Assembly: GCF_022846255.1 (NCBI RefSeq)
Contig: NZ_AP025682.1
Reading direction: 5' to 3' (one strand)
Origin: Escherichia coli
GTDB lineage: Bacteria; Pseudomonadota; Gammaproteobacteria; Enterobacterales; Enterobacteriaceae
DNA length: 64,000 bases
Of this stretch, positions 3,001-15,000 are shown in pieces. How positions within the stretch are numbered: the first letter of the stretch is position 1; every line of letters begins with the position of its first letter. Position numbers: made by a program.

Positions 3001-6000
3001 AGAGATCCACGAATACGTTCTGCGTAACTGGCGTATCGTCAAAGTTGCGACCACCAAAGCGCAACGCAAACTGTTCTTCAACCTGCGTAAAACCAAGCAG
3101 CGTCTGGGCTGGTTTAACCAGGATGAAGTCGAGATGGTGGCCCGTGAACTGGGCGTAACCAGCAAAGACGTACGTGAGATGGAATCACGTATGGCGGCAC
3201 AGGACATGACCTTTGACCTGTCTTCCGACGACGATTCCGACAGCCAGCCGATGGCTCCGGTGCTCTATCTGCAGGATAAATCATCTAACTTTGCCGACGG
3301 TATTGAAGATGATAACTGGGAAGAGCAGGCGGCAAACCGTCTGACCGACGCGATGCAAGGTCTGGACGAGCGTAGCCAGGATATCATCCGCGCGCGCTGG
3401 CTGGATGAAGACAACAAGTCCACGTTGCAGGAACTGGCTGACCGTTACGGTGTTTCCGCTGAGCGTGTGCGTCAGCTTGAAAAGAACGCGATGAAAAAAT
3501 TGCGCGCTGCTATTGAAGCGTAATTTCCGCTATTAAGCAGAGAACCCTGGATGAGAGTCCGGGGTTTTTGTTTTTTGGGCCTCTACAATAATCAATTCCC
3601 CCTCCGGCAAAACGCCAATCCCCACGCAGATTGTTAATAAACTGTCAAAATAGCTATTCCAATATCATAAAAATGGGGTATGTTTTAGCAGAGTATGCTG
3701 CTAAAGCACGGGTAGCTACGTATAAAACGAAATAAAGTGCTGCACAACAACATCACAACACACGTAATAACCAGAAGAGTGGGGATTCTCAGGATGAACA
3801 TAAAGGGTAAAGCGTTACTGGCAGGATGTATCGCGCTGGCATTCAGCAATATGGCTCTGGCAGAAGATATTAAAGTCGCCGTCGTAGGCGCAATGTCCGG
3901 TCCGGTGGCCCAGTACGGTGACCAGGAGTTTACTGGTGCTGAGCAGGCGGTTGCGGATATCAATGCTAAAGGCGGCATTAAAGGCAACAAACTGCAAATC
4001 GTAAAATATGACGATGCCTGTGACCCGAAACAGGCGGTTGCGGTGGCGAACAAAGTCGTTAACGACGGCATTAAATATGTGATTGGTCACCTCTGTTCTT
4101 CATCAACGCAGCCAGCGTCTGACATCTACGAAGACGAAGGCATTTTAATGATCACCCCAGCAGCAACCGCACCAGAGCTGACCGCCCGTGGCTATCAGCT
4201 GATCCTGCGCACCACCGGCCTGGACTCCGACCAGGGACCGACGGCGGCGAAATATATTCTTGAGAAAGTGAAACCGCAGCGTATTGCTATCGTTCACGAC
4301 AAACAGCAATACGGCGAAGGTCTGGCGCGAGCGGTGCAGGACGGCCTGAAGAAAGGCAATGCTAACGTGGTGTTCTTTGATGGTATCACCGCCGGGGAAA
4401 AAGATTTCTCAACGCTGGTGGCGCGTCTGAAGAAAGAGAATATCGACTTCGTTTACTACGGCGGTTATCACCCGGAAATGGGGCAAATCCTGCGTCAGGC
4501 ACGCGCGGCAGGGTTGAAAACTCAGTTTATGGGGCCGGAAGGTGTGGCTAACGTTTCGCTGTCTAACATTGCGGGCGAATCAGCGGAAGGGCTGCTGGTG
4601 ACCAAGCCGAAGAACTACGATCAGGTTCCGGCGAACAAACCGATTGTTGACGCGATCAAAGCGAAAAAACAGGACCCAAGCGGCGCGTTCGTCTGGACCA
4701 CCTACGCCGCGCTGCAATCTTTGCAAGCGGGCCTGAATCAGTCTGACGATCCGGCGGAGATCGCTAAATACCTGAAAGCGAACTCGGTTGATACGGTGAT
4801 GGGGCCGCTGACCTGGGATGAGAAAGGCGATCTGAAAGGCTTTGAGTTCGGTGTGTTTGACTGGCACGCCAACGGCACGGCGACTGATGCGAAGTAATCA
4901 TTAATCGGCAACTTTGGGTTGCCGCCAAATTGCTAATATCGAGTACGTTGCTTCATGCCGGATGCGGCGTAAACGCCTTATCCGGCCTACAAGATTCAAA
5001 GAAATCAGTAAATTGCAGCACACATTGTAGGCCTGATAAGCGTAGCGCATCAGGCAATATCACTTTTGAAATCAAACTTGACGATTAACGCTTCTCCCAG
5101 CCACCCTGTTGTGCCGTAAATCCCAGTGCTCGCATAAACGCCGTCATCACGCCGCGATCTTCCACGCCAGCATCCGCCATCCACCAACATGAAACGCCTG
5201 GATTGTTACGCAAAACCTCTTCCAGCAGATATTGCCCCACACCGCGACGTCGGGTGACTTCCCGCACGCGTAGAGAATCCAGAGCCCCCTCGGTGCCGCT
5301 TAAGGTTACCCGCACGGCAGCGAGCAGGCGCTCGTTAAAACGCGCGGCGTAGATACGGTAGTTATCGTCAACCTGTAAAGAGGAAGGGGAATATTCCGGC
5401 CAGATCTTTTGCAGGTCAATCCGGTCCTGGTCGCTAAAGTTTTCTAATCGAATGATGGTCAGCTTCATGGGGAACCCGTGTAAATCACAAAAGTGGAGCC
5501 AGTGTAGCGAAATAATTTAATCGGAGGCTTTCTCTTTTTTAATTCTTTTGGCAGGTGATTAATTTTTTAACAGCAATAATTACAAAGTTAAAACATTAGA
5601 GAATGAAAAATACCCAGCATAATCCCCTGAATGGTAGTGAATTATTCCGCCCTTTGTGCCGTTATTTTATGCTGACAAAGGCACTTTTTTCTGTTTATCT
5701 ATCAATAAATTCAGAATATTATCTGTTCTTAATCGACTGAAAAATAGGGATTTTAATCGCTATTATCACAAAATACTGCGCTAAACCCTTAATCAGACAG
5801 GCAAAAACAGTGCAGTATAAAAAAAGAACAGTCTGATTTGTTAACACATAAAAACAAAGCAACACAACATCACGAATGGGGATTTTTGACTATGAAACGG
5901 AATGCGAAAACTATCATCGCAGGGATGATTGCACTGGCAATTTCACACACCGCTATGGCTGACGATATTAAAGTCGCCGTTGTCGGCGCGATGTCCGGCC

Positions 6001-12000: not shown

Positions 12001-15000
12001 GATGCCGATGCGAAAGATGCGCCACAAAACGCCATTATCGGCGGAGCCAGTCTATGGGTAATGCAGGGTAAAGATAAAGAAACCTACACCGGCGTGGCGA
12101 AGTTCCTCGACTTCCTCGCAAAGCCAGAAAACGCTGCCGAGTGGCATCAGAAAACCGGCTATCTGCCAATCACTAAAGCGGCGTATGACCTGACCCGTGA
12201 GCAGGGCTTTTACGAGAAAAACCCAGGAGCGGATATTGCCACGCGTCAGATGCTGAACAAGCCACCGTTGCCGTTCACCAAAGGTTTGCGTCTGGGCAAC
12301 ATGCCGCAGATCCGCGTGATTGTGGATGAAGAGCTGGAGAGCGTGTGGACCGGTAAGAAGACACCACAGCAGGCGCTGGATACTGCCGTTGAGCGTGGGA
12401 ACCAGTTACTGCGCCGCTTTGAGAAATCGACGAAGTCTTAATCAGTGTAATGTCGGATGCGTTTCGCTTATCTGACCTGGCATCGCGTGTAGGCCGGATA
12501 AGCGAAGCGCATCCGGCACAGTTCAGGAATTAACTGTAATGTCATCATCCCGTCCGGTGTTCCGCTCGCGCTGGCTGCCTTATTTGCTGGTCGCGCCGCA
12601 GCTCATCATCACCGTTATCTTTTTTATCTGGCCTGCGGGCGAAGCGTTGTGGTACTCGCTACAAAGCGTCGATCCGTTTGGTTTCTCCAGCCAGTTTGTC
12701 GGCCTGGATAATTTCGTCACGCTGTTTCACGACAGCTACTATCTCGACGCCTTCTGGACGACGATAAAATTCAGCACCTTTGTCACCGTCAGCGGTTTGC
12801 TGGTATCGCTGTTCTTCGCAGCGCTGGTGGAGTACATCGTGCGCGGCAGTCGTTTCTATCAAACCTTGATGCTGCTGCCGTATGCCGTGGCTCCCGCCGT
12901 TGCCGCCGTATTGTGGATCTTTCTGTTTAACCCTGGTCGCGGGCTGATCACCCATTTTCTCGCTGAGTTCGGCTACGACTGGAACCACGCGCAAAACAGC
13001 GGTCAGGCGATGTTCCTGGTGGTGTTTGCCTCAGTGTGGAAGCAAATCAGCTACAACTTTCTGTTCTTCTATGCCGCGCTGCAATCCATCCCCCGTTCGT
13101 TGATCGAAGCCGCAGCCATTGATGGGGCAGGGCCGATTCGCCGCTTCTTTAAGATTGCGCTGCCGCTTATCGCTCCGGTGAGTTTCTTCCTGCTGGTGGT
13201 GAACCTGGTGTATGCCTTCTTCGACACCTTCCCGGTGATCGACGCCGCCACGTCCGGCGGGCCAGTACAGGCCACCACGACGCTGATTTATAAGATTTAC
13301 CGTGAAGGCTTTACCGGACTGGATTTGGCTTCGTCTGCCGCGCAGTCGGTGGTGTTGATGTTCCTCGTCATCGTGCTGACGGTGGTGCAGTTCCGCTATG
13401 TTGAAAGCAAGGTACGTTACCAATGATTGAGAACCGTCCGTGGCTGACAATATTCAGCCATACCATGCTGATCCTCGGGATCGCGGTGATCCTCTTCCCG
13501 CTGTACGTGGCGTTTGTCGCGGCGACGCTGGATAAACAAGAAGTCTATGCCGCACCGATGACGCTAATCCCCGGCACACATCTGCTGGAAAACATCCACA
13601 ACATCTGGGTAAACGGGGTAGGCACGAATAGCGCGCCGTTCTGGCGGATGTTGCTTAACAGCTTTGTGATGGCGTTCAGCATTACGCTCGGCAAAATTAC
13701 CGTCTCGATGCTCTCGGCATTTGCCATTGTCTGGTTTCGTTTTCCGCTACGTAACCTCTTCTTCTGGATGATTTTTATCACCCTGATGTTGCCGGTTGAA
13801 GTGCGTATCTTCCCGACGGTGGAAGTCATCGCCAACCTGAAAATGCTCGACAGCTACGCAGGTTTAACGCTGCCGCTGATGGCCTCGGCGACCGCCACGT
13901 TTCTGTTTCGCCAGTTCTTTATGACCCTACCGGATGAACTGGTGGAAGCCGCGCGGATCGACGGCGCGTCGCCAATGCGTTTCTTTTGCGACATCGTTTT
14001 TCCGCTGTCCAAAACTAATCTGGCGGCGCTGTTTGTGATCACCTTTATTTACGGCTGGAACCAGTATTTGTGGCCGTTGTTGATTATTACCGACGTTGAT
14101 CTCGGCACCACCGTGGCAGGGATTAAAGGGATGATCGCCACAGGCGAAGGCACAACGGAATGGAACTCGGTGATGGCGGCGATGTTGTTAACCCTGATCC
14201 CACCAGTAGTGATTGTTTTAGTGATGCAGCGTGCCTTCGTGCGCGGCCTGGTCGATAGTGAGAAATAAGATGGCAGGACTGAAATTACAGGCAGTAACCA
14301 AAAGCTGGGATGGCAAAACCCAGGTCATTAAACCGCTGACCCTTGATGTGGCGGATGGCGAATTTATCGTGATGGTCGGGCCGTCTGGCTGCGGGAAATC
14401 GACGTTATTGCGAATGGTTGCCGGACTGGAGCGGGTAACGACGGGCGATATCTGGATCGACCGCAAGCGTGTCACCGAAATGGAGCCGAAAGATCGCGGG
14501 ATTGCGATGGTGTTCCAGAACTACGCGCTCTATCCGCATATGAGCGTAGAGGAGAACATGGCGTGGGGGCTGAAAATTCGCGGCATGGGCAAGCAACAAA
14601 TTGCCGAACGTGTTAAAGAAGCGGCGCGCATTCTGGAGCTGGACGGCCTGCTTAAGCGCCGCCCGCGTGAGCTATCCGGCGGTCAGCGTCAGCGTGTGGC
14701 GATGGGGCGTGCGATTGTGCGTGAGCCGGCAGTATTCCTGTTTGATGAGCCGCTCTCTAACCTCGATGCCAAGTTGCGTGTGCAGATGCGTCTTGAACTG
14801 CAACAGCTGCACCGTCGCCTGAAAACGACTTCACTCTACGTTACCCACGATCAGGTTGAGGCGATGACGCTCGCCCAGCGAGTAATGGTGATGAACGGCG
14901 GCGTTGCCGAACAGATTGGCACGCCAGTTGAAGTGTACGAAAAGCCCGCCAGCCTGTTTGTGGCGAGTTTTATCGGCAGTCCGGCGATGAATCTGCTGGC

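Follow-up and report, generated by a model that had tools for sequence, protein, structure and literature searches.

The 64-kb stretch of Escherichia coli DNA analyzed here (the window) covers the rpoH-livJ-panM-livKHMGF-ugpBAECQ region. The elements in question are three clusters of repetitive extragenic palindromic (REP) sequences, or bacterial interspersed mosaic elements (BIMEs), which lie after livJ (cluster 1), livF (cluster 2), and ugpB (cluster 3). The liv and ugp genes span 3.7 to 14.3 kb of the window. Gene order in K-12 MG1655 is that of the window, and K-12 MG1655 carries the same six REPs at corresponding places; its equivalents of clusters 1 and 2 lie at about 3,598,397 to 3,598,495 and 3,592,564 to 3,592,662 of NC_000913.3. 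E. coli strain SCU-111 was 100% identical across the livJ-panM junction, where its RefSeq annotation names the same genes. The genes that bound the clusters were located as follows, with positions given in nucleotides (nt) of the window and gene ends for livJ and livF taken from open reading frame (ORF) coordinates:

livJ, plus strand, end at 4897
panM, minus strand, 5085 to 5468, with its stop codon at 5085 to 5087
livKHMGF, with the end of livF at 10728
ugpB, 11125 to 12441, with its TAA stop codon at 12439 to 12441
ugpA, 12539 to 13426, with its ATG at 12539, followed by ugpE and ugpC

Between these genes we found six REP units arranged as three inverted pairs, each pair separated by a linker (mismatches are to the head/tail consensus, and z scores are relative to shuffled sequence):

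R1, 4957 to 4990, plus strand: Y-type REP, GCCGGATGCG-GCGTAAACGC-CTTATCCGGCCTAC, 0 mismatches, hairpin of −21.3 kcal/mol, z of −4.2
L linker of cluster 1, 4991 to 5026, plus strand: aligns with the cluster 2 linker and with both K-12 copies
R2, 5027 to 5055, minus strand: short Z-type REP, GCCTGATGCG-CTACG-CTTATCAGGCCTAC, 0 mismatches, hairpin of −12.9 kcal/mol
R3, 10790 to 10818, plus strand: short Z-type REP, 0 mismatches, hairpin of −13.2 kcal/mol, z of −3.8
L linker of cluster 2, 10819 to 10854, minus strand: the cluster 1 motif in reverse orientation
R4, 10855 to 10888, minus strand: Y-type REP with the sequence of R1, 0 mismatches, hairpin of −20.9 kcal/mol, z of −5.1
R5, 12452 to 12480, plus strand: variant REP, GTCGGATGCG-TTTCG-CTTATCTGACCTGG, 5 mismatches
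R5-R6 linker, 12481 to 12488, plus strand: 8 nt, CATCGCGT, read from the sequence
R6, 12489 to 12517, minus strand: REP, GCCGGATGCG-CTTCG-CTTATCCGGCCTAC, 0 mismatches

An earlier note on this DNA had reported REP/BIME clusters after livJ, livF, and ugpB, at 4957 to 5055, 10789 to 10890, and 12452 to 12518. The clusters are real, the ranges are correct to within 1 to 2 nt, and the ends of livJ, livF, and ugpB together with the start of ugpA confirm the gene context claimed for them.

REP/BIME elements have been known since 1984, and E. coli K-12 has ~600 copies; the three sites in the window are ordinary E. coli members of this family. Since an Rfam scan of the whole window offered no REP family match at the clusters, consensus searches with shuffle controls were used instead. 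At a tolerance of 2 mismatches, the 14-nt CTAC-foot motif CTTATCMGGCCTAC was matched 5 times in 64 kb against an expectation of 0.60, a count that 0 of 100 shuffles reached, and all five matches were perfect and inside the three clusters. A head-gap-tail search gave zero-mismatch matches at these sites only, plus R5 with its 5 mismatches, while second-order Markov simulations produced a mean of 1.2 loose matches; an inverted-repeat search recovered the REP arms in their inverted-pair architecture. The consensus pattern search that the earlier note had proposed as a check thus found matches beyond chance and confined to the three clusters. The RefSeq feature table of K-12 MG1655 holds coding sequences only and no REP features for comparison. 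Across 5,425 E. coli genomes, DNA like that of cluster 1 was found at a median of at least 38 places per genome and DNA like that of cluster 2 at a median of 25 places; megablast cannot reveal the dispersion of a sequence as short as cluster 3.

The structure of the units is also that of REPs. All six lie between annotated genes, and each forms a stem-loop on its own (−9.5 to −21.3 kcal/mol; z of −2.2 to −5.1). Folding was better than that of shuffled sequence for every REP and every cluster (z of −2.2 to −7.4), with mRNA-sense structures at z of −3.2 to −7.4. The GTAG/CTAC foot is present in 5 of the 6 units as a perfect CTTATCMGGCCTAC, while R5 ends in CCTGG and has no foot. GATGCG...CTTATC, which places a G.T and C.T mismatch in the stem, was found in 6 of 6 units, and a GC/TT stem mismatch is a requirement for binding by TnpA-REP, the REP-associated tyrosine transposase known in E. 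coli generally (PMC3333891).

Clusters 1 and 2 are one composite in opposite orientations, consisting of a 34-nt Y REP, an L linker of ~36 nt, and a 29-nt GCCTGAT-type Z REP in inverse arrangement and single copy. In an alignment (A1) of the two clusters and two K-12 copies, mean column identity was 90% over the whole composite, and the short flanks were conserved too. The two 36-nt linkers have AAGAT...AAAT.CA.TA.ATTGC..C.CAC in common with each other and with K-12. We take the 29-nt Z unit to be z1 rather than z2. The cluster 1 linker has an exact match to the integration host factor (IHF) core WATCARNNNNTTR, AATCAGTAAATTG at 5003 to 5015, and the cluster 2 linker has an IHF-like core with one mismatch, ATTCAATATATTG, on the minus strand at 10830 to 10842. 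A BIME-1 is made up of z1 and y in single copy, with a long and well-conserved L linker that often has an IHF site (PMC3333891). Judged by sequence, clusters 1 and 2 are single BIME-1 (IHF-type) elements. They share with the BIME-1 or RIB-RIP family (Boccard & Prentki 1993; Bachellier et al. 1999; as defined by Ton-Hoang et al. 2012, PMC3333891) the inverse Y and short Z REPs, the ~36-nt linker with an IHF core, the single copy, and the position at 3' ends of transcription units, and we found no structural difference from it, apart from the one mismatch in the IHF core of cluster 2.

Since the two clusters combine BIME-1 architecture with an IHF core that is exact or has one mismatch, IHF rather than gyrase would be their expected partner; a preference of gyrase has been documented for BIME-2 tandem arrays and the Y units in them (PMC6379681). 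The earlier note had ascribed mRNA stabilization and IHF or gyrase binding to these elements as family properties. These properties agree with the literature, but gyrase is not the partner predicted for clusters 1 and 2. An unlikely, though conceivable, explanation of the elements places their activity at the level of DNA, where IHF at clusters 1 and 2 and gyrase at the Y REPs would absorb transcription-driven supercoiling between convergent or tandem units and organize the nucleoid. The BIME-1 architecture with its IHF core would suit such a role, as would the position of cluster 1 between the convergent livJ and panM (59 nt past the livJ stop and 29 nt from the panM stop), and Y-type REPs are preferentially cleaved by gyrase (PMC6379681). 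However, the documented cases of gyrase enrichment are tandem BIME-2 elements, a class to which none of the three clusters belongs, and ~31% of genomes have no cluster 1 and ~15% no cluster 2.

Cluster 2 starts 61 nt past the livF stop and lies upstream of the ugpB promoter region. One further feature was found between livF and this cluster:

10745 to 10764, plus strand: non-REP 8-bp terminator-like hairpin, AAGGAGTC-AAAA-GACUCCUU, then UUGAGA, after livF and upstream of the BIME, z of −2.96

It is possible, if somewhat doubtful, that the elements act mainly as attenuators or terminators, with the livJ, panM, and livKHMGF transcripts ending at clusters 1 and 2 and a fraction of transcription stopping at cluster 3, ahead of ugpA. 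Transcription attenuation associated with BIMEs was reportedly described by Espeli and colleagues in 2001. The only hairpin between livJ and its BIME is weak and has no U-tract (z of −0.3), which would leave a role for the BIME in ending this transcript. Yet no REP hairpin in clusters 1 to 3 is followed by a U-tract, and a terminator scan found nothing at the three clusters, with counts no better than those of shuffles. In addition, a separate hairpin precedes the BIME after livF.

The three sites varied among 5,426 complete E. coli genomes, which served as our population sample. The alleles were distributed as follows:

livJ-panM junction: BIME-1 allele in 3,748 genomes; ataR-ataT toxin-antitoxin cassette in 1,613 to 1,625
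livF-ugpB junction: BIME-1 allele in 4,629 genomes; gene for a tetratricopeptide repeat (TPR) protein in 659; intact phd/doc in 107
ugpB-ugpA junction: REP-pair allele in 5,104 genomes; ~155-bp palindrome of triplex-motif repeats in 318

At livJ-panM, comparison of window positions 4898 to 5084 with positions 1561 to 2505 of comparison stretch L007 resolved two discrete alleles. The ataRT allele has a strong intrinsic terminator after livJ and no REP, and the ataT stop overlaps the panM stop. At livF-ugpB, three alleles were distinguished (window positions 10766 to 10937 against L005, 672 to 1370, and L006, 1461 to 2500). The TPR allele, found in O157:H7, O55:H7, and others, consists of the TPR gene and then what appears, judged by eye, to be a phd remnant; in the phd/doc allele the livF hairpin bears a full U-tract. 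Neither of these two alternative alleles holds a REP. The variable segment is bounded on one side by the livF hairpin and on the other, ahead of the ugpB promoter, by a conserved TTATCCGTGCCCC. Chromosomal toxin-antitoxin loci that are unstable have reportedly been linked to REPs (Mine et al. 2009, cited in PMC4666352), and the alternation of BIME-1 and toxin-antitoxin genes on both sides of liv adds two more examples.

At ugpB-ugpA the replacement is of another kind. The alternative allele (L003, 493 to 667, from E. coli M114) is an inverted pair, CCCTCTCCC...GGGAGAGGG...GGGTGAGGG, that folds at −86.8 kcal/mol, with no difference between its right arm and TM_ECO no. 3 in Table 1 of Holder et al. 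2015 (PMC4666352). Similar inverted pairs fill the spacer in L076, L010, L011, L026, L048, L079, L086, and others, including several other genera. These TM_ECO intrastrand-triplex repeats replace the REP pair in the 318 E. coli genomes as well as in Kluyvera, Phytobacter, Enterobacter cloacae, and others; they are a repeat family separate from REPs, and none is present in this window. A third state was observed in E. coli LH10-b-1 (L004, 380 to 445), where a deletion has removed the last ~84 nt of ugpB together with the left REP, R5. The ugpB frame runs into the remaining REP, and the annotated ugpB is 1,233 nt long.

The earlier note had named absence from related strains without any change in expression as a finding that would speak against its interpretation, and the absence has come true in part, in that all three clusters are polymorphic within E. 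coli. With alleles in their place that bring or keep intrinsic terminators of their own, clusters 1 and 2 are unlikely to have a required function; the two clusters are dispensable and cannot be essential, and since they are replaced in 15 to 31% of genomes, their effect would be at most modulatory. These observations could also mean that the elements are neutral or selfish filler, present wherever intergenic DNA tolerates REPs and with no host function for any copy. Presence/absence polymorphism at all three sites is in keeping with this explanation, as are the exchange of clusters 1 and 2 for unrelated cassettes that bring in or retain terminators of their own and the fact that REPs are mobilized by TnpA-REP and vary among strains (PMC3333891). 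We nevertheless consider it rather unlikely for the set as a whole, on account of cluster 3. At this site, what replaces the REP pair in E. coli is likewise a strong palindrome, no spacer exists at the remaining ugp junctions, and, as described below, a stable hairpin from unrelated sequence families occupies the same slot in nearly all other species sampled.

The two REPs of cluster 3, R5 and R6, stand tail to tail within the ugpBAECQ transcript, on the coding strand between ugpB and ugpA. R5 starts 10 nt past the ugpB TAA, and 7 nt separate the end of R6 from the ugpA Shine-Dalgarno AGGA (12525 to 12528). ORF coordinates make this site the sole spacer in the ugp operon, as the ugpA-ugpE and ugpE-ugpC junctions overlap or abut. 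The 97-nt spacer (12442 to 12538) folds at −52.6 kcal/mol (z of −7.4), and its minimum-free-energy fold is one 23-bp inter-REP hairpin. R5 is a GTCGGAT variant without the CTAC foot, in which a compensatory U-A pair together with a G.U pair preserves the unit's own stem (alignment A2, below, columns 13/39 and 15/37). We considered R5 as a decayed REP and rejected this, given that its own stem is kept and that Buttiauxella, Cedecea, and Pseudocitrobacter have GTCGGAT...ATCCGAC units. In this strain, the ugpA Shine-Dalgarno also sits in the loop of a 6-bp stem, ACAGUU...AACUGU (12519 to 12538), directly after the REP hairpin; this stem was not conserved in the other genera of alignment A2.

Assignment of cluster 3 to BIME-2 was considered and rejected as well. 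A short linker and REPs arranged tail to tail are what cluster 3 has in common with BIME-2 elements (Y and Z2 REPs, short linkers, tandem arrays, and gyrase sites), but it is a single pair, does not vary in length among 5,104 genomes (nearly all of the E. coli sample), has no GCCTGAT (Z-type) unit, and has a left unit without the CTAC foot. Clusters 1 and 2 differ from BIME-2 in their long linkers. As far as its sequence allows a classification, cluster 3 fits neither BIME-1 nor BIME-2 and is better termed an isolated or atypical REP pair. A close counterpart is the malE-malF stabilizer (Newbury et al. 1987; re-measured by Dar & Sorek 2018, PMC5927463), likewise a REP pair between the gene for the binding protein and the first permease gene, with a very stable mRNA-sense hairpin. 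In contrast to malE-malF, the ugp REP pair is only 10 nt past the stop codon.

The ugpB-ugpA junction was compared across species with a degenerate DNA pattern for the UgpA motif WPAGEALWY, which matched at least 120 DNA stretches, nearly all from Enterobacterales. Among the matches listed, 112 spacers (111 other genomes and the window) had a placeable ugpB stop and ugpA start, and the counts below refer to these. The Chimaeribacter spacer was 15 nt long; the other 111 were 52 to 308 nt long and all folded at −17 kcal/mol or better, with medians of 100 nt, −46 kcal/mol, and z of −3.9 (z < −2 in 83%). This census covers ugpB-ugpA spacers only. A single hairpin of −10 kcal/mol or better was found in 100 of the 111 longer spacers and one of −15 kcal/mol or better in 94. 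The sequences that make up these structures belong to different families. REP pairs were found in 39 spacers, 3 of them also with a TM_ECO-type motif (Escherichia, Citrobacter, Salmonella, Enterobacter, Lelliottia, Raoultella, Trabulsiella, Buttiauxella, Cedecea, and others), TM_ECO-type repeats only in 19 (Kluyvera, Phytobacter, E. cloacae, K. oxytoca, and others), and unrelated GC hairpins in 53 (Pantoea, Erwinia, Serratia, Yersinia, Edwardsiella, and Hafnia). A T-run followed the best hairpin in 19 of the 111 spacers, mostly outside the REP lineages; it resembles a leaky intrinsic terminator and is a further point in favor of attenuation.

The REP-bearing spacers of 29 species from at least 12 genera (alignment A2) had a constant layout of left REP, variable linker, right REP, and Shine-Dalgarno, with the left REP 5 to 11 nt past the ugpB stop. 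Within the stems of the individual REPs, 97.6% of cells were paired, and 39 cells carried double changes compared with 13.4 in shuffles; slid-partner controls were all far lower. The long inter-REP hairpin was examined as the conserved structure and rejected, as it was paired in 88.7% of cells, with 12 broken cells at several pairs, compared with the 97.6% of the intra-REP stems. Another junction between a binding-protein and a permease gene in the window, the livK-livH spacer (7002 to 7048), also has a hairpin, CCGUCCG-UGAAAAA-CGGGCGG, which is not a REP (−19.3 kcal/mol; z of −3.45).

The earlier note had suggested that the REP cluster between ugpB and ugpA may help to set the expression of the binding protein relative to that of the permease genes. 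This is still a matter of inference from sequence, but it now has comparative support, because a hairpin is kept in 111 of the 112 spacers, whatever the sequence family. In E. coli ABC (ATP-binding cassette) transporter operons with differential decay, the stabilized gene is invariably that of the binding protein, and 3' structure protects malE (PMC5927463). By analogy, cluster 3 in the ugp transcript (plus strand) would form two hairpins, or one 23-bp hairpin, 10 nt past the ugpB stop, and would most likely block 3'-to-5' exonucleases after endonucleolytic cleavage downstream, with some additional attenuation of transcription possible. The predicted outcome is that ugpB message outlives the ugpAECQ message.

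The position of R5 also allows for the opposite effect. Ribosome stalling and weaker translation of the gene upstream have been reported for REPs no more than 15 nt from its stop codon (Liang et al. 2015, summarized in PMC12306157). Of the three clusters, only cluster 3 falls within this distance (10 nt); cluster 1 lies 59 nt past the livJ stop and 29 nt from that of panM, and cluster 2 lies 61 nt past the livF stop. If the mechanism of Liang, Rudd, and Deutscher applied here, the hairpin would stall the terminating ribosome and lower UgpB synthesis through trans-translation and decay, and the stabilizer and the translational down-regulator make opposite predictions for UgpB. We regard lowered UgpB synthesis as improbable. 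The distance of R5 lies within the effective range given in PMC12306157, and the left REP is similarly close to the stop throughout the 29 aligned species. However, more binding protein than permease is generally needed, and it is the binding-protein genes that are stabilized in comparable operons (PMC5927463). A short distance from stop to hairpin fits protection of the 3' end from endonuclease equally well. The best hairpin starts within 15 nt of the stop in 69 of the 111 longer spacers, and non-REP lineages often place it farther away.

Taken together, these results lead us to a probability of about 85% that the three sites are, as a whole, best explained as ordinary members of the REP/BIME family, with clusters 1 and 2 as BIME-1 elements with IHF and 3' untranslated region (UTR) roles and cluster 3 as a malE-malF-like element. 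In this family, the REP-associated tyrosine transposase spreads and maintains imperfect palindromes of 29 to 34 nt with GTAG/CTAC feet in intergenic DNA, and their use by the host is secondary. The most likely activities of clusters 1 and 2, where transcription units have their 3' ends, are binding of IHF and protection of the 3' UTRs from exonucleases, while cluster 3 would act as the stabilizer described above. Several observations weigh against this explanation. Cluster 1 is replaced in ~31% and cluster 2 in ~15% of genomes, by toxin-antitoxin or other genes, and for each of the three clusters there are E. coli genomes that do not have it. The IHF core WATCARNNNNTTR is degenerate and weak on its own, as the window has 14 matches where 4.9 would be expected. 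A distance of 10 nt from the stop would, by the ribosome-stalling argument, oppose a raised level of UgpB. The species sample was non-random, as it was set by an exact DNA pattern, among the matches listed, and the covariation in alignment A2 could reflect whole swaps of palindromic, species-specific REP variants rather than selection on RNA. Finally, a search of one literature library found no paper discussing these specific liv/ugp REP copies.

The identification of the clusters is already known in substance, because the REP/BIME family is well described and K-12 carries these very copies; the family, the BIME-1 subtype, mRNA stabilization, and IHF and gyrase as partners are textbook knowledge, and REPs near liv were presumably listed in the original REP surveys. 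The finding itself matters little, and what the present analysis adds is modest and comparative. It raises a broader proposal, which we consider evenly balanced between right and wrong, that the ugpB-ugpA junction is a selected "hairpin slot" across Enterobacterales, filled by palindromes that have been swapped for one another (REP pairs, TM_ECO pairs, and lineage-specific GC hairpins, some with U-tracts), with swapping ongoing in E. coli. On this view the operon would require a strong stem-loop in the RNA immediately past the gene for the binding protein. In the same proposal, the BIME-1 elements flanking liv would be hot spots where ataRT, phd/doc, and TPR cassettes replace them as discrete alleles. 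With strong hairpins from different repeat families in nearly every ugpB-ugpA spacer examined, the ugp operon is a clean natural test of the recruitment of REPs as operon-internal stabilizers or attenuators, and the two natural E. coli alleles at ugpB-ugpA, the REP pair and the triplex-motif pair, are a ready-made comparison.

Two minor observations were made elsewhere in the window. A REP-like hairpin, AGCCGGATCCGACGCATTATCCGGCT, was found at 56883 to 56906 between the convergent ORFs at 55850 to 56869 (plus strand) and 56912 to 59617 (minus strand). It has no GTAG/CTAC foot and could be a decayed solitary REP or the stem of a bidirectional terminator. The sole Rfam match in the window was the gene for the small RNA RyhB, at 19060 to 19124 (83.1 bits; E value of 3.6e-14).

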